Shown in pieces: positions 5,429 to 63,776 of a stretch of DNA of 64,000 nucleotides. The stretch is from a candidate division TM6 bacterium GW2011_GWF2_28_16 (GTDB lineage Bacteria > Babelota > Babeliae > Babelales > UASB340): assembly GCA_000989185.1 (NCBI GenBank), contig LBNX01000003.1, forward strand, positions 33,704 to 97,703, in the 5' to 3' direction. Position 1 is the first letter of the stretch. Every line of letters begins with the position of its first letter. The position numbers and the translations under genes were made by a program. The notes beneath the pieces were generated by a model. That model was not told the origin of the DNA, did not search any database, and saw nothing but the letters and a program-made list of their open reading frames with translations.

Positions 5429-5474
5429 ACCCTGCTTATTAAATAATATTAAAATTTAGTAAGCAGGGTTTTTT
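5429..5474 (+). terminator. Long hairpin terminator after the C11 peptidase gene, abutting the next start codon
   Basis: ACCCTGCTTATTAAAT...ATTTAGTAAGCAGGGT forms a 16-bp stem with 1 mismatch, followed by TTTTTT. The 3' arm GCAGGG may double as the SD for the next gene. Confidence 0.6.
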
Positions 5475-6092
5475 ATGCAAAATCAAAAAGAAAATTTAAA
5501 AAATGTTTTTGTAAAAAAAGAAGATGAAAAAATTTTAGTTATAAAAAGAGATATTTTATTTAATAAAAAAAGTATCTCTGGTTTAGAAAAAGTTGATTTT
5601 GATTATTATCAAGATCTAATCGAAAAAAATCAAGAATTTATTTGGCGTTCTGTAGCAGAAACAGATAATAGTTATAAACAAGTAATCCCATATTTAATTT
5701 TTAATTTTCAAGATAAATATTTTTTAATGCAACGTAAATCTAAAGCAAGCGAAGTTAGATTACAGAATTTATATTCACTCGGTATCGGCGGCCATATACG
5801 TCAAGAAGATATTACAGGGAGTGATATTTATAGTTGGGCTAAAAGAGAATTTTTAGAAGAAGTAGAATATTCTGGAAATTTAAAAATAAAAGCTCTTGGT
5901 ATTTTAAATGACGATTCTAACTCTGTTGGACAAGTTCATGTAGGTTTTGTTTTTTTATTAACAGGTGATTCAAGTAATATTAAGGTTAAAGAAGAATTAA
6001 AATCTGGTGAGTTATTAACTTTAAGTGAATGTAAAAAATATTACGAAAATATGGAAAATTGGACTAAATTGGTTTTTGATTTTTTGAAGTAA
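5475..6092 (+). CDS. Divergent Nudix-like hydrolase
   Basis: 205 aa. GIGGHIRQE...WAKREFLEEVEY resembles a Nudix box (G-x5-E...REUxEE) with a longer than canonical insert. Confidence 0.45.
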   Translation: MQNQKENLKNVFVKKEDEKILVIKRDILFNKKSISGLEKVDFDYYQDLIEKNQEFIWRSVAETDNSYKQVIPYLIFNFQDKYFLMQRKSKASEVRLQNLYSLGIGGHIRQEDITGSDIYSWAKREFLEEVEYSGNLKIKALGILNDDSNSVGQVHVGFVFLLTGDSSNIKVKEELKSGELLTLSECKKYYENMENWTKLVFDFLK

Positions 6093-10300: not shown

Positions 10301-10367
10301 GATCCTCGATCCCTCGATACATCCCCCTTCGCTAAAGCTACGGAGGACACTCGGGACGAACGGGGCA
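10301..10367. repeat. GC-rich repeat, class C with embedded M core
   Basis: GATCCTCGATCCCTCGATACAT-cccCCTTCGCTAAAGCTACGGagg-ACACTCGGGACGAACGGGG. The arms match the mutL copy at 42921-42973. Confidence 0.8.
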
Positions 10368-10389: not shown

Positions 10390-10747
10390 GGGGGCGTCAC
10401 GGTTTCGACGTGATATTTGATGTTTTGAGAGCATGTCGAGTTTTGTATGGGAACTCGTAAAAAACATACAAAACAAATAAGTGCAGAACCTGTTTCCGCA
10501 TACGCTTAATAGTAGTTATTAAGTGACTTGTCAGTAAAGCATGTCTATCTGTGGAACTGACTCGTATTAAAAAGATAGAACTCGCTAAGTAGATTTTTTG
10601 GTTTTGTATTTAGCGAAAATCACTAAACTGGCTTTTATTTCAATCTATGCTCTTGAGGTGAAGTAAGAGTATATTCAAGAGATAAACATGTAGTGCTTGG
10701 AACTGATAGTGTTGCGGACATGGGTTCGACTCCCATCGCCTCCACCA
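10390..10747 (+). ncRNA. ssrA: tmRNA (SsrA)
   Basis: The 5' GGGGGCG pairs with CGCCTCC at the 3' end, including the G3:U wobble. GGTTTCGACG is present, as is the T-arm ATGGGTTCGACTCCCAT and an encoded ACCA. The candidate tag ORF is GCA GAA CCT GTT TCC GCA TAC GCT TAA TAG (10483-10512). Confidence 0.9.
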
Positions 10748-10788
10748 GTCTTCGCTCTAATGAGCTACGACTGGCGGGCCAGTACCGG
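10745..10788. repeat. CCA-anchored M-type hairpin at the tmRNA 3' end
   Basis: CCAGTC-ttcgctctaatgagctac-GACTGG, followed by cgggccagtaccgg. The first three bases are the tmRNA CCA. Confidence 0.75.
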
Positions 10789-10811
10789 AATTTTTTTTGA
10801 TATTAGTAGAA

Positions 10812-10858
10812 CCAGTGCGAAGACTGCCCGGCGAAGCCTTGGCGTAGTCGGGCCTGAG
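10812..10858. repeat. GC-rich repeat with M core
   Basis: ccagtgcgaagactgCCCGGC-gaagccttggcgta-GTCGGGcctgag. Confidence 0.7.
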
Positions 10859-10918
10859 TTTGACATTAAAATTTTGCTCGCGCTGTCTAGAAAAATATAG
10901 CTTTAAAATTACTAAAGT

Positions 10919-10990
10919 GAGCCTGCGCCTGTCCACCGTAGCTTTAGCGAAGGTTGGATGAGCGGGCGTATTTGAGGTAGCCCTGCGGCG
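10919..10990. repeat. GC-rich repeat, class A
   Basis: GAGCCTGCGCCTGTCCACCGTAGCTTTAGCGAAGGTTGGATGAGCGGGCGTATTTGAGGTAGCCCTGCGGCG. It is near-identical over the first ~45 nt to 45167-45282. Confidence 0.85.
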
Positions 10991-10991
10991 T

Positions 10992-11047
10992 AAATAATTT
11001 ATGGATGCACATCTATCTCCTTTTAAAATATAAAATTTCTAAAATAT
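10992..11047 (+). repeat. Decayed duplicate of the rarA promoter-proximal/5' coding region
   Basis: aaataatttatggatgcaca at 10992-11011 is identical to 12952-12971. Gapped similarity continues (atctcc/atctct, ttttaaaa, tataaaa, aaaatat). The copy reads ATG GAT GCA CAT ... TAA after 10 codons. Confidence 0.7.
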
Positions 11048-41623: not shown

Positions 41624-43708
41624 TTATAATTTTCTTTTAAACTGTTTTTCAATAAAATCTTTATTGAGTATCCAGGTTGTTGGCCTGCCGTGTGGGCAGG
41701 TCAACAAATTTTCTGTTTTATATAAGTTATTAACAATTTCTTGCATTTGCGTTTCAGTTAAAATATCGCCTGCTTTAACTGCAGATTTGCAAGCAATTTG
41801 TGCATGAATTTTGTCGTTTAATTTTTTTCTAAAAAGTTCTTGATCTAGATTTTCAAATTCTCTAATAAATTCTAAAATTTCAAAAATTAATTCTTTTAAA
41901 GATTGATTTTGAATTCCTGCAGGGCTAGATTTTATGGCTAGTTGGCTTTTGCCAAAAACTTCGATATTTATTCCCTGATTAGCTAAAAACTCTTGAGCTA
42001 ATTTTATTTGTTCAAGTTCAAGATTATTTAAATTTATTATTTCTGGAAACATTAATTTGATTCCAGATTTAGTTTCAAAATTTTTAGTTATATTATCGTA
42101 AATTATTCTTTCGTGTGCTGCATGCTGGTCGATAATAATTAAATTTGTTTCGCTCTGAGCGATAATATACGTTGTTAAAAATTGGCCTATTATTTTAAAG
42201 GATCTAGATCCCCAGCCTACGCCCTTCGTGGCTTCCAACTTCGCCAAGGCTTCGATGGACACGTCGGCGGGCAGGCCGGTTTCTCTGGTAGGGATAACAA
42301 ACTCTGTTTGAGTTGGATTTATATTGCTGGATCCTGAATCAAGTTCAGGATGACAAACGGGGTGGGCAATATAACTATTATATTTAAAAGTACGCGACTG
42401 AGATCCCCAGCCTTCGCCCTTCGTGGCTTCCAACTTCGCCAAGGCTTCGATGGACACGTCGGCGGGCAGGCCGGTTTCTCTGGCCGGGATGACAGCGCTA
42501 AGAGTTGTGTTGAGCAAGCCAGAAGACATACTAGGGCTGACTATATCTGTGTTAAGGTTGGTTTCTCTGGTCGGGATGACATTGCCAATAAAACTGCGAA
42601 CGTTTGCATCCAGAGTTTCTTTAATAATTCTTTGCAATAAATTTGTTACAGTATGTGGCTTTAAAAAGCGAACTTCTTCTTTTTTGGGATGAACATTAAT
42701 ATCAACAAAATTACTTGGTGTGTTTATAAAAATAAAACTAGCCGGGAATTTTGCCGGAGGTAAAACTCCAGTGTAGCCTTTAAAGAGTGCCTTATTTAAT
42801 TCTGTGTCTTTTATATAACGATTATTAACAAAAAAGAATATTTGGTGTTTGCCATAACGCCATAGGTTGTGATTACTGGTAAGACCAGAGATTGAGATTG
42901 ATGTATTGTTTTTATTACTAGATCCTGATCCCTCGATACATTTTTCTTGCGAAAAACACTCGGGATGAACGGGTTTAGGAGTACAAGTTGTGGGTTGGTT
43001 GTCATCCCGGGCTTGACCCGGGATCTCTCCATTATTTATCTCTAGCATGCTTTCGCTTAAGCTATGCCCCCAGAGTTGGGCAACGCGATCTTTAATGTTT
43101 TGTGTAGCAGGCGCATTAAGTATAATTTTGTCGTCTTTAAAAAGTTTAAAATTAATATTAATATTGCTTAAACAAAATGCATTAAAAATATTTAATATCT
43201 GGTTAAATTCAGTTTCGTCTTGTTTTAAAAATTTTTTACGAACAGGTAAATTAAAAAAAAGATCATATATTTGTAAATCTGTTCCTATTGGACATGAAAC
43301 ACTTTCTTGAGAGTGTAATTTATTTTCGTAATAAATTATTTTGGTACCAACTTCTTGATTGTTAGTTTTAGTTATTAAAGTTACTTTGCTAACAGCACTA
43401 ATGCTTGCAAGAGCTTCACCTCTAAAACCAAAAGATGCTATATTTTCTAGGTCATTTATATTTTCTATTTTACTTGTTGCGTGCTTTTCAAAACACAATA
43501 AAGCATCTTGTTCGCCCATGCCAGAGCCGTTATCTACAAGTCTAATTAAACTCTTGCCAGAATCTTTTATATATAAATTTATTTGAGTGCTATTGGCATC
43601 TATAGAATTTTCTATTATTTCTTTAACTATATTTGCTGGACGCTCGACAACTTCGCCAGCTGCAATTTTTGCAGCCTGCTCAGGTGCTAATATTTTTATC
43701 TTGTTCAT
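41624..43708 (-). CDS. mutL: DNA mismatch repair protein MutL (linker expanded by repeat insertions)
   Basis: It has the GHKL motifs (ERPANIVKEIIENSIDA, DNGSGM, GFRGEAL) and the C-terminal domain (IIGQFLTTYII...DQHAAHERI). The ORF is intact at 694 aa. Confidence 0.92.
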   Translation of the reverse strand: MNKIKILAPEQAAKIAAGEVVERPANIVKEIIENSIDANSTQINLYIKDSGKSLIRLVDNGSGMGEQDALLCFEKHATSKIENINDLENIASFGFRGEALASISAVSKVTLITKTNNQEVGTKIIYYENKLHSQESVSCPIGTDLQIYDLFFNLPVRKKFLKQDETEFNQILNIFNAFCLSNININFKLFKDDKIILNAPATQNIKDRVAQLWGHSLSESMLEINNGEIPGQARDDNQPTTCTPKPVHPECFSQEKCIEGSGSSNKNNTSISISGLTSNHNLWRYGKHQIFFFVNNRYIKDTELNKALFKGYTGVLPPAKFPASFIFINTPSNFVDINVHPKKEEVRFLKPHTVTNLLQRIIKETLDANVRSFIGNVIPTRETNLNTDIVSPSMSSGLLNTTLSAVIPARETGLPADVSIEALAKLEATKGEGWGSQSRTFKYNSYIAHPVCHPELDSGSSNINPTQTEFVIPTRETGLPADVSIEALAKLEATKGVGWGSRSFKIIGQFLTTYIIAQSETNLIIIDQHAAHERIIYDNITKNFETKSGIKLMFPEIINLNNLELEQIKLAQEFLANQGINIEVFGKSQLAIKSSPAGIQNQSLKELIFEILEFIREFENLDQELFRKKLNDKIHAQIACKSAVKAGDILTETQMQEIVNNLYKTENLLTCPHGRPTTWILNKDFIEKQFKRKL
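42207..42298. repeat. 92-nt GC-rich repeat unit, copy 1, in-frame in mutL
   Basis: gatccccagcctacgcccttcgtggcttCCAACttcgccaaggcttcGATGGacacgtcggcgggcaggccggtttctctggtagggataac. It translates as IPTRETGLPADVSIEALAKLEATKGVGWGS. Confidence 0.9.
42326..42362. repeat. B-type hairpin repeat, in-frame in mutL
   Basis: gctgGATCCTGAAtcaagTTCAGGATgacaaacgggg codes HPELDSGSS. Confidence 0.8.
42402..42493. repeat. 92-nt GC-rich repeat unit, copy 2, in-frame in mutL
   Basis: It differs from 42207-42298 at 4 of 92 positions and lies 195 nt away. It translates as IPARETGLPADVSIEALAKLEATKGEGWGS. Confidence 0.9.
42560..42580. repeat. Solo terminal fragment of the 92-nt unit, in mutL
   Basis: ggtttctctggtcgggatgac matches the end of the 92-nt units and codes VIPTRET. 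Confidence 0.7.
42921..42973. repeat. Class C GC-rich repeat, in-frame in mutL
   Basis: GATCCTGATCCCTCGATACAT-ttttcttgcgaaaa-ACACTCGGGATGAACGGG has arms matching 10301-10367. Confidence 0.8.
43001..43030. repeat. B-short palindromic repeat, in-frame in mutL
   Basis: GTCATCCCGG-gcttgac-CCGGGATCTCTCC codes GEIPGQARDD. Confidence 0.8.
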
Positions 43709-45140: not shown

Positions 45141-45166
45141 TTTCGTAATAACTGTAAAATTTTTTT

Positions 45167-45282
45167 GAGCCTGCGCCTGTCCGCCGTAGCTTTAGCGAAG
45201 GCTGGACAAGCAGGCGAATTTATGGTAGCCCAGTGGCAGCCTGCCCGCCATAGCCTTGGCGACGGCTAGGTAAGTCCTGGGC
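45167..45282. repeat. Class A GC-rich repeat (long form, two M cores)
   Basis: GAGCCTGCGCCTGTCCGCCGTAGCTTTAGCGAAGGCTGGACAAGCAGGCG...GGTAGCCCAGTGGCAGCCTGCCCGCCATAGCCTTGGCGACGGCTAGG... Confidence 0.85.
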
Positions 45283-45289
45283 TTATAAT

Positions 45290-47719
45290 TTACCAAGCGT
45301 AATTCATATTAAGATGAAACTCATGAGCGCTTTCGCCTGCAGCTTTGTCTCGATCAAGTTTATAACCCCAATCGATTTTAGCTGGCATAGGCTGAGTAAG
45401 ATTTAATCCAAAGCCTACAGCGTGTCTTAAATCGAACTTGTCTCGTTTAATAAAAGCTTTATTTGTGATTTCATCTTTTGGAGTATTCCATCCAGCACCA
45501 GCATCGTAAAACAAGTGTCCGCGCATAGAGTAATCTGGAATTAATGGGAACTGTAATTCAACATTTAGCTGTATCATATATTTTGCACCCAATGGAGCAT
45601 TGGTGATCCATGCAGGTTCTATACCACCCCAGATAAAGCCTCTTACTGTATCTTGACCACCCATATGAAAGAGTTCTTTATATGGAATAATTTTTTTCTT
45701 TCTAGTGTCTTGTGTTATATAAGTTCCACCAACAGGTGTTACAACGCCAGTTTTGCCGTGTATCATAAATACAAGATTGTCATCACCAATAAGTGGCGTA
45801 TACCAACTGCCTTCTAATTCACTTTTTATAAAACTATATTCTAAGTTAATAGCAGGCGGTGCTATTTTGTTGTGCCACATAATTCTGTAACCATGATTAG
45901 GATAAATTTTATGATTTCTTGTATCTTTTATTAAATCTAAACAAAGCCAAGAAAGTGTTCCCTGTTGGAATTTTTGTCTGACTAAAGGTTCAAAAACTTC
46001 ACTGTTTGCTCCAACAGCATGAGGTTGATTATTTTTAATGTTTTCTATACCAAGCTCTGTAACAAATTGTAATCTTTTATCCCATTTTGGTAACAAAAAT
46101 CCAAAGCGGCCGCTGGCACCAAGTGTACTTTCTTTTGGCATTACGTTTACGTTTGCCCATTGTTCGTATTCTTCCCAACGTTTATATATTGTTGCGAATA
46201 CAGAAGAATCAGAATCAAATAATGCTGGGTCATAATAAGTTGCTTCTAACCGCTGAAAGCCATGTCTGTTACCTTGCATCATTGCTCCGGCATCAAAGCC
46301 CATACCAAATAAATTTTTCTTTTCTACGCTTACTTGGCCTTTTAGCGATGGTCTTGGATTAAATTTGTCACTACCATAAGAGATACCAACATTAGCATTT
46401 CCTGTTTTTGTTTCTTTTACGTTAAGTTCTAAGTTTGCTTTTTCATCATTTAATCTGTGTATCTTCCAGTTAACACCACCACGTTCAAAAAAACTTAAAT
46501 ATTCTACGTTAGCTTTTGATCTATTTAATTTTTTGGTTGTAATTAAATCGCCTTCTTCAAGATCTATTTGTCTTCTAATAACTTTATCTCTTGTAAAAGT
46601 GTTGCCAGTTATATTAACTCTGTTTACATAAAGTTTTTTTCCGGGTTCTACAAAGAAAGTAATATTTACAGATTTTGTTTCTTCATCAGGTTTTACTTGA
46701 GGGTAAACGTCTGCGTTTATATATCCCATTGTTCCCCAATAATCTCTAAGGCTTGTAATAGATTCCGCCATTTTAGACTGAGAATATGGTTTGTTTTCTT
46801 CTAAAGAGATATATTCTAATTGTTTTTCAGTTGTTACTTTTTCGTCATTATCTTCGTTAGAAACATCTATTTTAGAAATTTTAAATTGATCGCCTTCTTT
46901 TATATAAAAAGTAACTTCTATATTTTTATTTTCTTTTGAATATTTAACATCGGCTTTTTGTACTGTTGTTGTTAGATAGCCCTTGTCTCTGTATAAAAAT
47001 TCTATTCTGTGTTTATCCATTTCAAGATCATCTTGTTTGAATTTTCCTGCATCTTCGACAAAACCTAATAGCCATTCTTCTCTTGTTGTAATCATTTTGC
47101 GTAATTTGCGTTCAGGTATTTTTGTATTGCCTATAAAATTTACTCTTACTACATTAGATTTTGGCCCTTGATCTACTATAAATTTAGCAGTTACTTTTTC
47201 TGGTACGTTAGGATCGGGAATAATTAAATATTTAACTTCTGTTTTGTGATAACTTTCATCTGCATATAATTTTTTGATGCCGTTACAAATTCTGTGACCT
47301 GTTTCTTCGTCTACAGTTGTTAGTTTGTCTAGAGCAAGTTCTTCGCGTATTTTTTTACTATCTATAACCTTGTTGCCTTCAAATTCAAGTTTTGCTAATA
47401 ATTTTTTTTCTTCAACTTTTACGTAAATATTAACTTTGTGATGTTTTAAAATTTCTTTTTTTATTTTAACTTGTCTAAAATATCCAAGATTATAAACATT
47501 ATTTATAGCAATGGCACTTTTTGATTCATCAAAATCTTCGCCTGGCTTCCAAGGGAGCCTATTCATGATAGTATATTTTTTTACGTGATTATTCCCATTA
47601 ATAATAATTTTATTTATTTTAAGTGATTCACTAGCCTGCAGGATATTTAGTGATAGAAAACAAAAAGAAACAACTATTAAAAACAAAAATTTATTTAAAT
47701 AAAACTTTTTATGCATCAT
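45290..47719 (-). CDS. bamA: Outer membrane protein assembly factor BamA (Omp85)
   Basis: 809 aa. It has a signal peptide, repeated POTRA-like units, a C-terminal beta-barrel with a terminal aromatic (...NMNYAW) and the VRGF motif. Confidence 0.9.
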   Translation of the reverse strand: MMHKKFYLNKFLFLIVVSFCFLSLNILQASESLKINKIIINGNNHVKKYTIMNRLPWKPGEDFDESKSAIAINNVYNLGYFRQVKIKKEILKHHKVNIYVKVEEKKLLAKLEFEGNKVIDSKKIREELALDKLTTVDEETGHRICNGIKKLYADESYHKTEVKYLIIPDPNVPEKVTAKFIVDQGPKSNVVRVNFIGNTKIPERKLRKMITTREEWLLGFVEDAGKFKQDDLEMDKHRIEFLYRDKGYLTTTVQKADVKYSKENKNIEVTFYIKEGDQFKISKIDVSNEDNDEKVTTEKQLEYISLEENKPYSQSKMAESITSLRDYWGTMGYINADVYPQVKPDEETKSVNITFFVEPGKKLYVNRVNITGNTFTRDKVIRRQIDLEEGDLITTKKLNRSKANVEYLSFFERGGVNWKIHRLNDEKANLELNVKETKTGNANVGISYGSDKFNPRPSLKGQVSVEKKNLFGMGFDAGAMMQGNRHGFQRLEATYYDPALFDSDSSVFATIYKRWEEYEQWANVNVMPKESTLGASGRFGFLLPKWDKRLQFVTELGIENIKNNQPHAVGANSEVFEPLVRQKFQQGTLSWLCLDLIKDTRNHKIYPNHGYRIMWHNKIAPPAINLEYSFIKSELEGSWYTPLIGDDNLVFMIHGKTGVVTPVGGTYITQDTRKKKIIPYKELFHMGGQDTVRGFIWGGIEPAWITNAPLGAKYMIQLNVELQFPLIPDYSMRGHLFYDAGAGWNTPKDEITNKAFIKRDKFDLRHAVGFGLNLTQPMPAKIDWGYKLDRDKAAGESAHEFHLNMNYAW

Positions 47720-47811: not shown

Positions 47812-49365
47812 CTAATTTTGTGCTTGATAATTTTTTATAGTTTCAAAATCTTTTTTGATAGAATGCTCACTTGGAGCCCAATCTAAAAGCTTAGATTTGA
47901 TTGAGTTAACAAAGTTTTTTGATATTGCAACTTTGTTTTCTAATAATTTTATTTTTTCTTTATGCTTGAATACATAAACTTTTAAATTTTTACTTGTAAG
48001 TCTTATGTTTATATCTAAATCTTGTGTATTGTTAGAAATATTTTCTATAGATTTTAAAATTAATGGTGTAAAAATAACAGAAGGTAAACATTCTAAAGGT
48101 TCGCTAGTTTTGTCTTTTAATTTATTCCACGAAACAAACCATAATTCTTTGTGCGTAGGATCTTTTGATTTTTTGCAAAACATTCTACTTGGAGAAAATA
48201 GTTTTTGCCAAAAGCTTTCATAATGTCTGTTTGGTTGAGTTGTAGTGGTATCAAGGCTTAATACCTGCTGTGTATTTACTATTACCTTTTGCATTTCTCT
48301 ATCTGTCATAATTTTTAATTGAACAAATTTTGGTTTATCTTTTATTTTTGTAGTATCAATATTTTTTATTATTTTAAATCTTCGTTTACTGTCTTTTTTT
48401 GTAGAAAACACGTCTAGATCTTGTATTACGTCTTCTTGTGAATATATGCTATAAATATTTTTAAAAAAATTATTTAAAATAAAGCTTTCTGTTTCTGGCT
48501 GCACTGGGCATCCAAACATTAAAAGTTCATTTACTATTAAATTTTTATTTTCTGGAAAATAATCATATTTTTTTTGATTAGTATAAGCTTTAATGGCACT
48601 TTTTTTAGGTAAAGCTTTAATAATTTCGTACATACATTTTAATGATTCATGTTCGTCATTATTAATAGTATTTTTTAATATTAAATCTATATTTTCAAAA
48701 TTATTAATAACAGTATGCACTGCAGCTAAATTTAATGCTAAGTTACCACCATGACTATGAGTTATAATTCTAATTTCGGGAATTTTCTCAAAAGATTTAT
48801 AATTTTCGAGTTCTTCTGAAAGTGAATTATAAAAACGTACAGCTTCTAATCTTCTTCTATTTTGACTTAATAAACCAGACCAGCCAAAGGTATAAAAGTT
48901 GTTATTAATATTTTTATTATTTTCTTGATCAAATTGTTCATAAGCTTTAATTATTGGATAAGCTGCAAAGTGAGTATTTGATGTTGATGCCAAATCAAAA
49001 GTAGGTTCAATTTTAATTAAACCTTTTTGCATAATTGTTTGGCTGCTATAAAAATCTGGATTTTTTCGCATTTTTGATACGGTTTTTTTGTATTTGGTGT
49101 TATCTACATTATCGTCTAAAACTTTAAATAAGTTCATTAATCCAATAACAGATCCAAAAGAACCATGAGTAAAAACAGTTATTTTTTCTTGAGTGTATTT
49201 TTTGGGAACAATATTTGTGATTTTTGGTTGTTTTTTATAATAATTAAATAAAATAACACCAAGTAATATTGTAAAAAGAAGTAAAAAAGATGTAAAAAAC
49301 ACTATAATTCGATGTTTTTTCCCCATTTTTTTATTAATTTTTATATCTTTTTTACTGTTTTTCAT
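47812..49365 (-). CDS. Membrane-anchored alpha/beta-hydrolase (lipase/esterase-like)
   Basis: I prefer the ATG at 49365, which follows GGAGA at 7 nt (MKNSKKDIK...). It has an N-terminal TM, HGSFGS and a nucleophile-elbow-like THSHGGN. The track N-terminus (to 49482) is read from a repeat element. Confidence 0.5.
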   Translation of the reverse strand: MKNSKKDIKINKKMGKKHRIIVFFTSFLLLFTILLGVILFNYYKKQPKITNIVPKKYTQEKITVFTHGSFGSVIGLMNLFKVLDDNVDNTKYKKTVSKMRKNPDFYSSQTIMQKGLIKIEPTFDLASTSNTHFAAYPIIKAYEQFDQENNKNINNNFYTFGWSGLLSQNRRRLEAVRFYNSLSEELENYKSFEKIPEIRIITHSHGGNLALNLAAVHTVINNFENIDLILKNTINNDEHESLKCMYEIIKALPKKSAIKAYTNQKKYDYFPENKNLIVNELLMFGCPVQPETESFILNNFFKNIYSIYSQEDVIQDLDVFSTKKDSKRRFKIIKNIDTTKIKDKPKFVQLKIMTDREMQKVIVNTQQVLSLDTTTTQPNRHYESFWQKLFSPSRMFCKKSKDPTHKELWFVSWNKLKDKTSEPLECLPSVIFTPLILKSIENISNNTQDLDINIRLTSKNLKVYVFKHKEKIKLLENKVAISKNFVNSIKSKLLDWAPSEHSIKKDFETIKNYQAQN

Positions 49366-49390
49366 ACTTTTTCTCCAGATTTTTATTACA

Positions 49391-49476
49391 CGAACGTTTC
49401 GTTCGCCCTGCCTGTGCGCCATAGTCTTAACGACGGCGTAAGCGTAGTCGAAGGGCAAACAGATCAGGGATCTCTC
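49391..49476. repeat. GC-rich repeat in the 5' region of the hydrolase gene
   Basis: cgaacgtttcgttcgccctgcctgtGCGCCatagtcttaacgacGGCGtaagcgtagtcgaagggcaaacagatcagggatctctc. It shares cgttcgccctg with 59278-59327 (reverse complement) and the GGGATCTCTC end with the mutL units. Confidence 0.75.
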
Positions 49477-49743
49477 TTCCAATATTTATCTTATATTTAT
49501 CTTATTAAATAGGGCTAAAAATGCAACCGGTATATTATTATTTGTCAATTTTTTGTATTAAAAATTTTAAAATAGATTCTGGAAGCAATTTTTTGTTTAG
49601 TCTCTGCCATAGCGTATATACAATATAAGGAGGGCATTTGAAAATTTATTTTTAAAGTGCTAATATTTAGGCCTATATGGGATGTTATTTAGGGGTTTTT
49701 AGGGCCATTTTTAATTATGGCAATTTTAATTGGGGGGCTTTTT

Positions 49744-59173: not shown

Positions 59174-59192
59174 AAAAAATTAACTTGCATTT

Positions 59193-59244
59193 GAGCCTGC
59201 TCAAGCAGGCGGCTTTGAGGTAGCCCAGTGCGTGTGCGCTGGGC
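59193..59244. repeat. Class A GC-rich repeat (short form)
   Basis: GAGCCTGCTCAAGCAGGCGGCTTTGAGGTAGCCCAGTGCGTGTGCGCTGGGC. Confidence 0.8.
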
Positions 59245-59277
59245 TAATTTGTTTTGTATTAAAGGGCCTATATTTTT

Positions 59278-61382: not shown

Positions 61383-61424
61383 GCGAAAGCTGGCTGCGCC
61401 ATACGAAGCCTTGGCGAAGTATGG
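61383..61424. repeat. CCA-anchored M-type hairpin at the 3' end of tRNA-Ser(TGA)
   Basis: On the + strand it reads gcgaaagctggctgcgCCATAC-gaagccttggcgaa-GTATGG. The last TGG is the complement of the tRNA CCA. Confidence 0.8.
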
Positions 61425-61513
61425 TGGAGAGAGTGAGATTCGAACTCACGATTCCTGTTTCCAGGAATAACGGTTTTCAAGACCGCCGCATTCAACCACT
61501 CTGCCATCTCTCC
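61422..61513 (-). tRNA. tRNA-Ser (TGA)
   Basis: Reverse complement GGAGAGATGGCAGAGTGGTTGAATGCGGCGGTCTTGAAAACCG...long variable arm...GAGTTCGAATCTCACTCTCTCCACCA. Confidence 0.9.
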
Positions 61514-61610
61514 GGTTATTTTTTTAGGTTGAGATATATTTCAAAAGTTTTTGTGAAGATAAATTTGCATCTAGGCTAATAGATAGCGTTAATTTAATTT
61601 TAAATACCAA

Positions 61611-61688
61611 GTCCAGGTCCGCCGTCGCTCTGGCGAGCTTCCACCGACGCTAAAGCTATGGTGGACATGATGGCGTGACAGCCTACGC
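61611..61688. repeat. GC-rich repeat with M core between the two tRNA-Ser genes
   Basis: gtccaggtccgccgtcgctctggcgagcttCCACCgacgctaaagctatGGTGGacatgatggcgtgacagcctacgc. Confidence 0.75.
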
Positions 61689-61721
61689 AATAGTGCTAAC
61701 AAAGTTTTTATAATATAAATA

Positions 61722-61761
61722 CCGGTCCTGGCATGCCAGCCGTAGCTTTAGCGTAGGCTGG
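61722..61761. repeat. CCA-anchored M-type hairpin at the 3' end of tRNA-Ser(GCT)
   Basis: ccggtcctggcatgCCAGCC-gtagctttagcgta-GGCTGG overlaps the tRNA CCA complement. Confidence 0.8.
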
Positions 61762-61850
61762 TGGAGAGAGAGGGATTCGAACCCTCGATCCCGGTTTCCC
61801 AGGATACTTACTTAGCAGGCAAGCGCTTTCGACCACTCAGCCATCTCTCC
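61759..61850 (-). tRNA. tRNA-Ser (GCT)
   Basis: Reverse complement GGAGAGATGGCTGAGTGGTCGAAAGCGCTTGCCTGCTAAGTAAG...GAGGGTTCGAATCCCTCTCTCTCCACCA. Confidence 0.9.
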
Positions 61851-63647: not shown

Positions 63648-63734
63648 GCCGAAGTGGCGAAATTGGTAGACGCGCGAGACTCAAAATCTCGAGGTGGCAA
63701 CACCGTGTCGGTTCGAGTCCGACCTTCGGCACCA
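63648..63734 (+). tRNA. tRNA-Leu (CAA)
   Basis: GCCGAAGTGGCGAAATTGGTAGACGCGCGAGACTCAAAATCTCG...long variable arm...GGTTCGAGTCCGACCTTCGGCACCA. Confidence 0.9.
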
Positions 63735-63776
63735 GCCGTCGCTCCTGCGGAGCTATGGCTGGCAGGCCAGGACTGG
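63732..63776. repeat. CCA-anchored M-type hairpin at the 3' end of tRNA-Leu
   Basis: CCAGCC-gtcgctcctgcggagctat-GGCTGG followed by caggccaggactgg. The first CCA is the tRNA CCA. Confidence 0.8.

Follow-up and report, generated by a model that had tools for sequence, protein, structure and literature searches.

Homing endonucleases of the I-TevI type, which carry a GIY-YIG domain, are classically repressed in translation by hairpins over the ribosome-binding site (RBS), SLX1 cuts branched and stem-loop DNA, and to our knowledge neither a substrate nor a partner is known for any bacterial UPF0213 protein. Small COG2827 endonuclease genes occur in multiple copies and their role is unknown (PMC1839093). 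Among structured elements, the theta ribozymes, which are like those of hepatitis delta virus, begin exactly at the tRNA 3' end (PMC10879173), and the repetitive extragenic palindromes (REPs) of the CGTC type possess an unpaired CGTC tag, 8-9-bp stems starting with A/T, 4-5-nt loops, a 3' CCA tail and no known transposase (PMC3733652). Here, we analyzed a 64,000-nt stretch of DNA (the window) of the candidate division TM6 bacterium GW2011_GWF2_28_16 (contig LBNX01000003.1, positions 33,704 to 97,703), in which the encoded CCA of one transfer-messenger RNA (tmRNA) and three tRNA genes forms the first bases of a hairpin, termed H1. These four hairpins are probably gene-less remnants or miniatures of a compound palindromic GIY-YIG element which targets tRNA 3' ends and is itself probably mobile. 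No earlier description of this element was found in the literature by exact sequence or keyword, and the published papers searched gave no link of UPF0213 proteins to tRNA genes or repeats.

The window has a GC content of about 28% and contains seven tRNA-like genes according to ARAGORN and Rfam, all of which encode their CCA. In four of the seven, the CCA starts a perfect 6-bp stem of the form CCANNC-[YWC-GC..GC-TWY]-GNNTGG, and at all four the gene 3' end given by ARAGORN and Rfam coincides with the first three stem bases. The original prediction, which was made from the sequence alone, had named these four hairpins, and re-reading of the sequence returned the same coordinates and strands:

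10390-10747, plus strand: tmRNA gene (ARAGORN; Rfam RF00023, 167.5 bits), whose terminal CCA at 10745-10747 is common to H1.
10745-10774, plus strand: H1 of tmRNA, CCAGTC-TTCGCTCTAATGAGCTAC-GACTGG, that is CCAGTC / TTC-GCTC-TAAT-GAGC-TAC / GACTGG; present in the minimum-free-energy (MFE) fold, z = -3.3.
61399-61424, minus strand: H1 of tRNA-Ser(TGA) (gene 61422-61513), CCATAC-TTCGCCAAGGCTTC-GTATGG; exact match to the degenerate pattern, present in the MFE fold.
61736-61761, minus strand: H1 of tRNA-Ser(GCT) (gene 61759-61850), CCAGCC-TACGCTAAAGCTAC-GGCTGG; exact match to the degenerate pattern, present in the MFE fold.
63732-63762, plus strand: H1 of tRNA-Leu(CAA) (gene 63648-63734), CCAGCC-GTCGCTCCTGCGGAGCTAT-GGCTGG, that is CCAGCC-GTC-GCTCC-TGC-GGAGC-TAT-GGCTGG; z = -2.7.

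The "loop" of H1 is itself structured, since a 3x3 internal loop (TTC/TAC, TTC/TTC, TAC/TAC or GTC/TAT) encloses an inner stem, and this inner stem covaries among the four copies (GCT/AGC, GCC/GGC, GCTC/GAGC and GCTCC/GGAGC). The MFE RNA fold contains H1 in all four trailers with modest z values relative to shuffles (-1.1 to -3.3), and no advantage over shuffles was seen for the folds of the tRNA-fMet and tRNA-Gln trailers. No hairpin was found at tRNA-fMet, tRNA-Gln and tRNA-Arg, as had been predicted. Perfect CCANNC/GNNTGG hairpins occur four times in the window, and in each case the CCA is the end of an RNA gene on the same strand. For the short-form degenerate 26-mer, which matches exactly only at the two Ser copies, 0 matches are expected in window shuffles, and a chance origin of the window hairpins is excluded.

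For comparison with other genomes, the pattern CCANNCKWCGCYAARGCTWYGNNTGG was scanned against both strands of one genome per bacterial and archaeal species (596 Gb). Positions 1-3, 6, 21 and 24-26 of the query were fixed, and two NN pairs and the Y-R pair were left free. Chance should yield about 4-6 matches by our estimate (38 bits), and at least 124 exact matches to the 26-nt motif were obtained in other genomes, at 119 loci and in more than 15 phyla (Verrucomicrobiota, many Patescibacteria of the candidate phyla radiation (CPR), Pseudomonadota, Bacteroidota, Planctomycetota, Acidobacteriota, Nitrospirota, Bdellovibrionota, Lentisphaerota, Chloroflexota, Bacillota, Armatimonadota, Dependentiae and others). 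Near-identical cores over more than 15 phyla suggest horizontal spread. Among the matches listed at the 119 loci, 60 lie close to a tRNA or tmRNA, and 58 of these overlap the same-strand CCA called by ARAGORN by exactly 3 nt, the other two being offset by -3 and +8. Instead of variable offsets without enrichment at the CCA, this survey gave the same offset nearly throughout, which clearly favours the observation of the original prediction. At least 10 other matches stand behind tRNA or tmRNA ends which ARAGORN missed or which are cut by a contig edge, and one extra tmRNA missed by ARAGORN was recovered by Rfam. The tRNAs concerned have many different anticodons, and tmRNA is over-represented (7 of the 60 listed). 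In the 64 distinct tRNA-linked copies, 99.1% of the stem cells are standard pairs, a value not reached in any of 500 shuffles, and two-sided changes of the three variable stem pairs were counted in 29, 18 and 24 sequences.

The occupancy of tRNA genes by H1 differs between lineages. On the bystander tRNAs of the fetched loci, H1 was found in 5 of 12 cases in Dependentiae-like loci vs 2 of 41 in other phyla, and the window has it at four of seven genes; in Dependentiae, the hairpins without a gene have proliferated, and about half of the tRNA genes carry one. A scan of viral contigs gave 3 motif matches. In one viral contig (L201, 1036-1213), the tRNA-Val(CAC) and tRNA-Glu(TTC) which ARAGORN calls on the plus strand directly adjoin a minus-strand H1; these calls are probably minus-strand tRNA-His(GTG) and tRNA-Phe(GAA) read on the wrong strand.

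Alignment of the 64 copies revealed that H1 is directly followed by a tail with the consensus CARGCCA(G). After a spacer of 15-100 nt there follows S3 (GCGAA-arm'-TG), which is the reverse complement of the left end of the element from CA through the arm to TTCGC. Directly behind S3 stands a second hairpin, H2, with the core in inverted orientation (GYCCNCC-GAAGC..GCGAA-GGNGGRC). S3 matches the arm of its own locus exactly in 47 of 104 elements and with one mismatch in a further 22, compared to 1 exact match in the arm-swapped control, and it tracks the local arm for two different arms both within the window and within locus L062. In the window, these parts are arranged as follows:

10775-10782, plus strand: tail of the tmRNA H1, CGGGCCAG (family consensus CARGCCAG), with a T8 run 8 nt beyond.
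10817-10826, plus strand: S3 of the tmRNA element, GCGAAGACTG, exact reverse complement of CAGTCTTCGC at 10746-10755 (CA of the CCA, arm and core start).
10827-10852, plus strand: H2 of the tmRNA element, CCCGGC-GAAGCCTTGGCGTA-GTCGGG, core in inverted orientation.
61390-61398, minus strand: tail of the tRNA-Ser(TGA) H1, CGCAGCCAG; solo H1 without S3 or H2.
61728-61735, minus strand: tail of the tRNA-Ser(GCT) H1, CATGCCAG.
61679-61688, minus strand: S3 of the tRNA-Ser(GCT) element, GCGTAGGCTG, complementary to CAGCCTACGC of its own H1 and tracking the local TACGC core variant.
61640-61665, minus strand: H2 of the tRNA-Ser(GCT) element, TCCACC-ATAGCTTTAGCGTC-GGTGGA.
61617-61648, minus strand: second unit nested at this H2, together spanning 61617-61665; both counted earlier as free-standing.
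63763-63770, plus strand: tail of the tRNA-Leu(CAA) H1, CAGGCCAG; solo H1.

Hence, the complete H1-S3-H2 layout is also present in the window, namely at tmRNA and tRNA-Ser(GCT), and a solo H1 with its tail stands at tRNA-Ser(TGA) and tRNA-Leu(CAA). Consequently, the units located between both Ser genes form the distal portion of the tRNA-Ser(GCT) element, and the copies at 61603-61689 and 10817-10852, which had been taken as free-standing, turned out to be S3 and H2 of the tRNA-Ser(GCT) and tmRNA elements.

A further candidate hairpin, S2, formed by the 3' arm of H1 and a downstream CCANNC, was rejected (69.8% of its cells are paired vs 67.4% in shuffles), and because of this weak pairing CARGCCA is treated as a sequence motif and not as a helix. 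By inspection, the H1-S3 spacer of Dependentiae-like copies (about 60 nt) contains conserved promoter-like boxes, GGATTGAY... followed by TTGATAGCAC 3-6 nt before S3 (loci L043, L059, L060, L098, L111, L115, L120 and L126; window 10790-10816 and, on the minus strand, 61689-61727). At four Dependentiae-like metagenome loci (L141, L153, L178 and L183), in places without a tRNA, a conserved motif AAAGTTCTAAGATAGTCCA which has no Rfam match closely precedes H1 or the nuclease gene described below.

A rival explanation is that the repeat derives from tRNA as a retro-copied 3' end or in the manner of a short interspersed nuclear element, or that its overlap with the CCA is coincidental and due to GC-rich repeats crowding in non-coding tRNA flanks. 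The reverse complement of the core (TAGC..GCGAA) is superficially like U8-A9 plus the D-stem, the regular expression also matched the D-arm of tRNA-Arg, and some free copies retain a fragment of a tRNA 3' end upstream. However, a subfamily from soil with the arm TCCTGC carries this identical arm behind Tyr, Val, Met, Leu and Ser tRNAs, and therefore the arm belongs to the element. Apart from CA/CCA, no element sequence matches the adjacent tRNA, and no reverse transcriptase was seen in the inspected loci, although no systematic search for one was made. A coincidence is excluded by the fixed 3-nt overlap as well as by the match counts. The fixed register, the shared arms and the arm-tracking S3 effectively refute both explanations, to which we give hardly any credence. 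The earlier suggestion that the element may be copied from tRNA likewise finds no support, given that the arms are lineage-specific, recur at many tRNAs and share only CA/CCA with them.

In many loci, an open reading frame (ORF) of the pattern M-x-YVY-[LI]-[LI]-x-S...Y-[IV]-G...R-L-x-x-HN...E-x-Y-[LI]-K-[ST]-GSG begins 5-30 nt behind H2. At least 18 tRNA-linked motif matches have such a same-strand ORF of about 80 aa 50-600 nt downstream. In these relatives, though not in the window, the ORF was assigned to the GIY-YIG domain (Pfam PF01541, E = 1e-15 to 1e-17). The linked ORFs comprise 78-111 aa, mostly about 80 aa, and consist of the catalytic domain only; the catalytic residues Y5, Y17, G19, R27, H31, N32 and E63 are invariant in 19 sequences. 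In a profile search of PDB sequences the best matches were UPF0213 (1zg2, E = 5e-11) and SLX1 (E = 5e-8), and I-TevI reached only E = 0.7. The nuclease has no match in PHROG and a single partial one in PADLOC (about 16 bits, E about 1e-3).

The linkage was also approached from the side of the protein. When metagenomes were scanned with the nuclease alignment, at least 574 confirmed relatives were obtained, the best 80 of which were examined, and 60 of these have at least 300 nt of upstream sequence. At least 42 of the 60 (at least 70%) are preceded on the same strand by a tRNA or tmRNA whose end lies 52-620 nt away, mostly 95-200 nt, and the spacer between this end and the ORF is the H1-S3-H2 module in nearly all of the 42 loci. 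In several of the remaining loci, the module stands behind tRNA 3' ends which ARAGORN missed. A metagenome-assembled genome (MAG) of a Babeliaceae bacterium (L008, 5950-6290) contains a second, larger GIY-YIG gene, which belongs to a different subfamily (YFYCYILRC...YTGHT...) and stands between perfect inverted repeats of about 50 bp.

Many loci with an ORF have a GGAGG-like 3' arm of H2 at 7-12 nt ahead of the ATG, and a recurrent G.A mismatch in H2 keeps GGAGG intact. By analogy with I-TevI this suggests that H2 hides the RBS of the nuclease gene. The same features would be expected if the module were the leader of the nuclease messenger, in which H1, S3 and H2 are alternative folds of a tRNA-mRNA co-transcript that couple translation to tRNA 3' processing, with H2 hiding the Shine-Dalgarno sequence and the gene-less copies being decayed leaders. 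The pairings of H1 and S3 are mutually exclusive, the H1-S3 gap of GC-rich lineages (16-22 nt, without promoter-like boxes) leaves no room for a separate promoter, and repression by RBS hairpins is established for the I-TevI type. In Dependentiae, however, the spacer of about 60 nt has promoter-like boxes and H1 and S3 consequently need not share one transcript. Furthermore, S3 is without wobble enrichment, and solo H1 at many tRNAs as well as units inserted elsewhere are left unexplained. Taken by itself, the leader is a distinctly improbable explanation; it is compatible with a mobile element and not exclusive of it.

The insertion signatures of the element comprise duplicated tRNA ends, tandem and nested copies, and paralogous sites which are filled in one place and empty in another. 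In an Opitutaceae MAG (L070, 4812-6598), a 46-nt direct repeat consisting of a tRNA-Ala 3' end and H1 borders a segment of 1.74 kb. This segment contains the GIY-YIG cassette and two small ORFs which by eye resemble a toxin-antitoxin pair of the DUF433/DUF5615 type (PIN-like), and other small cargo may likewise use H1 for attachment. A stretch of 18-19 nt from the end of the tRNA is repeated distal to the ORF in L074, L110 and L139 (18 nt in L074 and 19 nt in L139). Together with the common overlap in 58 of 60 matches and the tRNA or tmRNA ahead of at least 70% of the nuclease genes, these duplicated ends strongly support the suggestion of the original prediction that the element may target tRNA 3' ends. 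L044 has a decayed second cassette in tandem, and L008 a tandem array of 32-nt H1 units starting with CA (5464-5670, partly masked). The TCCTGC subfamily is also found off tRNAs, behind TCA or TCG. In the spacer between tRNA-Tyr and the GIY-YIG gene of metagenome locus L155, a TCCTGC element immediately follows the CCA in the CAAGCCA tail that belongs to a GCC-type H1. The GCCA of the tail may mimic a tRNA end as target; the GCC-type H1 is itself split by another unit. Free H1-type hairpins amid tandem heptamer-like repeats (GGTTGCA, AGGCGTA, CTGATCC, CTCACG and GGGTTAC) were observed in L018, L054, L073, L090 and L118, which belong to Bacteroidales and other MAGs.

Orthologous tRNA loci were compared, as had been proposed for a check. 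At tRNA-Leu(CAA), TM6 UASB340 and the window are 86% identical, and the hairpin of the former is CCATAC-TTCGCCAAGGCTAC-GTATGG compared to the GCC arm and 19-nt core of the latter. As the TAC variant of UASB340 equals the variant at tRNA-Ser(TGA) of the window, this change looks like a copy exchange and not like point mutation. Such turnover of variants is in line with mobility, but H1 is retained at the Lys-Glu tRNA cluster of 5 genomes.

In total, the window contains at least 14 units of the hairpin family, with H1 and H2 mutually inverted in orientation. The claim that the free-standing copies also begin with CCA had to be corrected, since most of them do not and represent the second type, H2, with arms TCCNCC/GGNGGA or GCCCGNC; two or three of the H2-type units carry an extra A (TCC-A-NCC). 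The units away from the four elements are:

10322-10347, plus strand: H2-type hairpin, TCCCCC-TTCGCTAAAGCTAC-GGAGGA, 43 nt upstream of the tmRNA 5' end.
10932-10957, minus strand: H2-type unit within the loop of a further stem-loop repeat (GAGCCTGC...GCGGGC).
42206-42299 and 42401-42494, plus strand: two 94-nt repeats with hairpin units, in frame in the interdomain linker of mutL (41624-43708, minus strand).
45180-45205 and 45244-45269, minus strand: two H2-type units downstream of bamA, each nested in one loop of a composite terminator-like repeat, whose paralogous copy at 59184-59252 has no unit in either loop.

The tmRNA gene is thus bracketed by units of the family, with 10322-10347 upstream and H1 downstream. 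The two mutL repeats are 96% identical, lie 195 nt apart and possess two hairpin cores apiece; their translation, ...RETGLPADVSIEALAKLEATKG.GWGS..., falls into the linker which joins the DNA_mis_repair domain to MutL_C. The composite terminator-like repeat (GAGCCTGC..GCAGGC..GGTAGCCCAG..CTGGGCT) has three copies in the window. Hairpin units occupy both of its loops at 45155-45290, one loop at 10905-11000 and neither at 59180-59260, so that the three copies provide a filled/empty site comparison inside one genome. A decayed unit, GCGCC-ATAGTCTTAACGAC-GGCG, was noticed at 49388-49460, at the 5' end of an ORF (47812-49482, minus strand) for which Pfam gave no match.

With these data in hand, a role of H1 as a host RNA signal has to be weighed. 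According to this explanation a co-transcribed hairpin would sequester the CCA and act as terminator, as processing or cleavage guide or as protection of the precursor, and the nuclease gene would be a mere passenger. The exact CCA register, the high occupancy in Dependentiae, the retention of H1 at the Lys-Glu cluster (5 genomes) and at the orthologous tRNA-Leu(CAA) (2-3 genomes) and its presence in the RNA MFE fold are all compatible with such a signal. Furthermore, several Dependentiae copies have a T-run behind the tail, and theta ribozymes set a precedent for structured RNAs which abut and process tRNA 3' ends (PMC10879173). Nevertheless, none of the four window H1 was called as an intrinsic terminator, that is, as a GC-rich stem-loop with a T-run within 0-2 nt. 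Existing T-runs begin 8-16 nt past the stem, and among the four only the tmRNA copy has one, 16 nt past the stem. Rfam searches of the window and 34 related loci, at the gathering score and at E <= 5, returned only tRNA and tmRNA, and hence no resemblance to any other family, ribozymes included. The sense strand shows no excess of G.U pairs in H1 (1 G.T vs 4 internal A.C) or in S3 (5 vs 12), and G.T is slightly enriched in H2 (7 vs 1 A.C); these counts do not separate RNA from DNA pairing in H1, S3 and H2. In the TCCTGC subfamily only the A of the CCA is paired and both C's are unpaired, and a stable stem containing the CCA should hinder exonucleolytic 3' trimming. Moreover, units also occur off tRNAs, in terminator loops, in mutL and in tandem arrays, and outside Dependentiae the distribution is patchy (2 of 41 bystander tRNAs). 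Of the functions proposed in the original prediction, the canonical intrinsic terminator is thus not borne out, and 3' processing and CCA protection fit poorly with the unpaired C's of the TCCTGC subfamily. Overall, we consider a host signal unlikely as the origin of the hairpins, but a host role in tRNA 3'-end handling could have been acquired secondarily in Dependentiae.

We therefore return to the mobile GIY-YIG element, whose selfish and mobile nature we infer. Its full form is [tRNA...C-CA]-arm-TTCGC-inner hairpin-GCTTC-arm'-TGG-CARGCCA tail-spacer-S3-H2-~80-aa GIY-YIG nuclease (UPF0213/SLX1 type). In this explanation, the CCA overlap arises because the element starts on its left with a CA which is at once the final CA of the RNA gene. 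At its 3' foot the hairpin has TGG (S3 has TG), a complement of this flank which would pair with it. Extruded as single-stranded or cruciform DNA, H1 and H2 may be the substrate of the SLX1-like nuclease, in agreement with the cutting of branched and stem-loop DNA by SLX1. The nuclease could then drive insertion or gene conversion beside a stem followed by YCA, for which the tRNA acceptor end would be the commonest case. Full-length copies may be co-transcribed with the tRNA, and H2 would cover the RBS of the nuclease.

Several points weigh against this proposal. Neither a transposition nor a homing event has been observed, and we know of no strand transfer among the activities of GIY-YIG enzymes; the 80-aa catalytic domain is without a DNA-binding domain of its own. 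The GIY-YIG gene is absent from the 64-kb window according to tblastn, so that the window is tied to the nuclease by homology of the non-coding module, and about two thirds of the tRNA-linked H1 copies have no ORF nearby. Most cassettes show no recognisable right-end repeat, module or target duplication behind the ORF. The retention of H1 at orthologous tRNAs of divergent Dependentiae would suit a host function as well, and the covariation could result from template-switch correction of quasi-palindromes instead of selection. Finally, all frequencies are biased estimates because the database scans were seeded with our own pattern or protein.

A wider interpretation, less likely than not but with a fair probability, is that of an unrecognised class of mobile element, in which a minimal SLX1-like nuclease is directed by hairpins and lands at tRNA and tmRNA ends guided by pairing of the hairpin foot with the flanking CCA, in analogy to the guide-target pairing of IS200/IS605 but by other chemistry, with spread over more than 15 phyla and with remnants in Dependentiae that possibly came to serve the host in handling tRNA 3' ends. 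The element combines a palindromic repeat, a dedicated nuclease and a preference for tRNA sites, and its targeting principle may well be new. If the proposed GIY-YIG element is correct, the abundant small and uncharacterised UPF0213-like GIY-YIG proteins as well as GC-rich repeats of reduced Dependentiae, CPR and many other genomes would be parts of one element associated with tRNA 3' ends, the H1 and H2 hairpins would offer a concrete substrate for a nuclease family without known target, and tRNA gene ends would be recognised in a new mode. How tRNAs mature whose CCA is locked in a stable stem becomes a question of its own. For annotation, the motif flags tRNA and tmRNA 3' ends and small cassettes which current pipelines leave unlabelled.

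Compared with known systems, the element shares with the genomic islands at tRNA and tmRNA ends the preference for tRNA and especially tmRNA genes and, in some loci (L070, L074, L110 and L139), direct repeats of the tRNA end, which could not be recognised in most cassettes. In contrast to these islands, the inserts are of 0.1-0.5 kb, the junction lies at or after the CCA and not in the T-arm or anticodon arm, and the conserved part is a hairpin and not a core derived from tRNA; no integrase was seen in the inspected loci, whose flanks were not screened systematically, and cassettes of 0.3-0.5 kb are too small for one. The CGTC-type REPs differ from H1, in which the stem is GC-rich and 6 bp long, the core is structured and of at least 14 nt, and the CCA stands at the 5' foot. 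In-frame insertion into a gene, as in mutL of the window, is known from the Rickettsia palindromic elements (PMC3733652). Theta ribozymes share the position at the tRNA end, but no ribozyme model matches the element. Of what has been published, these ribozymes and the CGTC-type REPs come closest, yet the element agrees with neither.

With T4 SegB, which resides in a phage tRNA cluster (PMC2330249), and with I-TevI the element has in common the GIY-YIG domain, a patchy and selfish appearance, the residence at tRNA genes and a probable translational repression of its nuclease by an RBS hairpin. Unlike these enzymes, the nuclease of about 80 aa has no separate DNA-binding domain for a long asymmetric target, follows the UPF0213/SLX1 profile and comes with a hairpin module of its own, and the element is found at many different tRNAs, which classical homology-dependent homing cannot achieve. 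The best sequence matches of the linked protein are SLX1 and the YhbQ-like UPF0213 proteins.

The IS200/IS605 insertion sequences (IS) resemble the element in their left-end hairpin, in the insertion 3' of a short target (here YCA/CCA, in IS200/IS605 a fixed tetra- or pentanucleotide) and in the possible pairing of the flank inside the element (TGG foot, TG of S3); the element differs in that no ORF for TnpA (HUH Y1) or TnpB lies beside its hairpins and in that its pairing would be of the ordinary Watson-Crick kind within the stem. With the REP/REPIN-RAYT systems (REPtrons) it shares short, GC-rich, multicopy extragenic palindromes in inverted pairing, nesting in stem-loops or genes, long persistence at orthologous sites and a small dedicated nuclease gene flanked by hairpins. 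The differences are that this gene is of the GIY-YIG type (PF01541) and not Y1 HUH (IS200-like), that the element starts with CCA in place of a terminal GTAG, with GTAGC/GCTAC strings inside the core, and that it possesses a conserved 3x3 internal loop, a variable inner stem and a bias for tRNA and tmRNA 3' ends. Membership in either group fails because the HUH transposase and the GTAG tag are absent; even without these defining features, the element is in its working most like a REP/REPIN-RAYT system or the left end of IS200/IS605.

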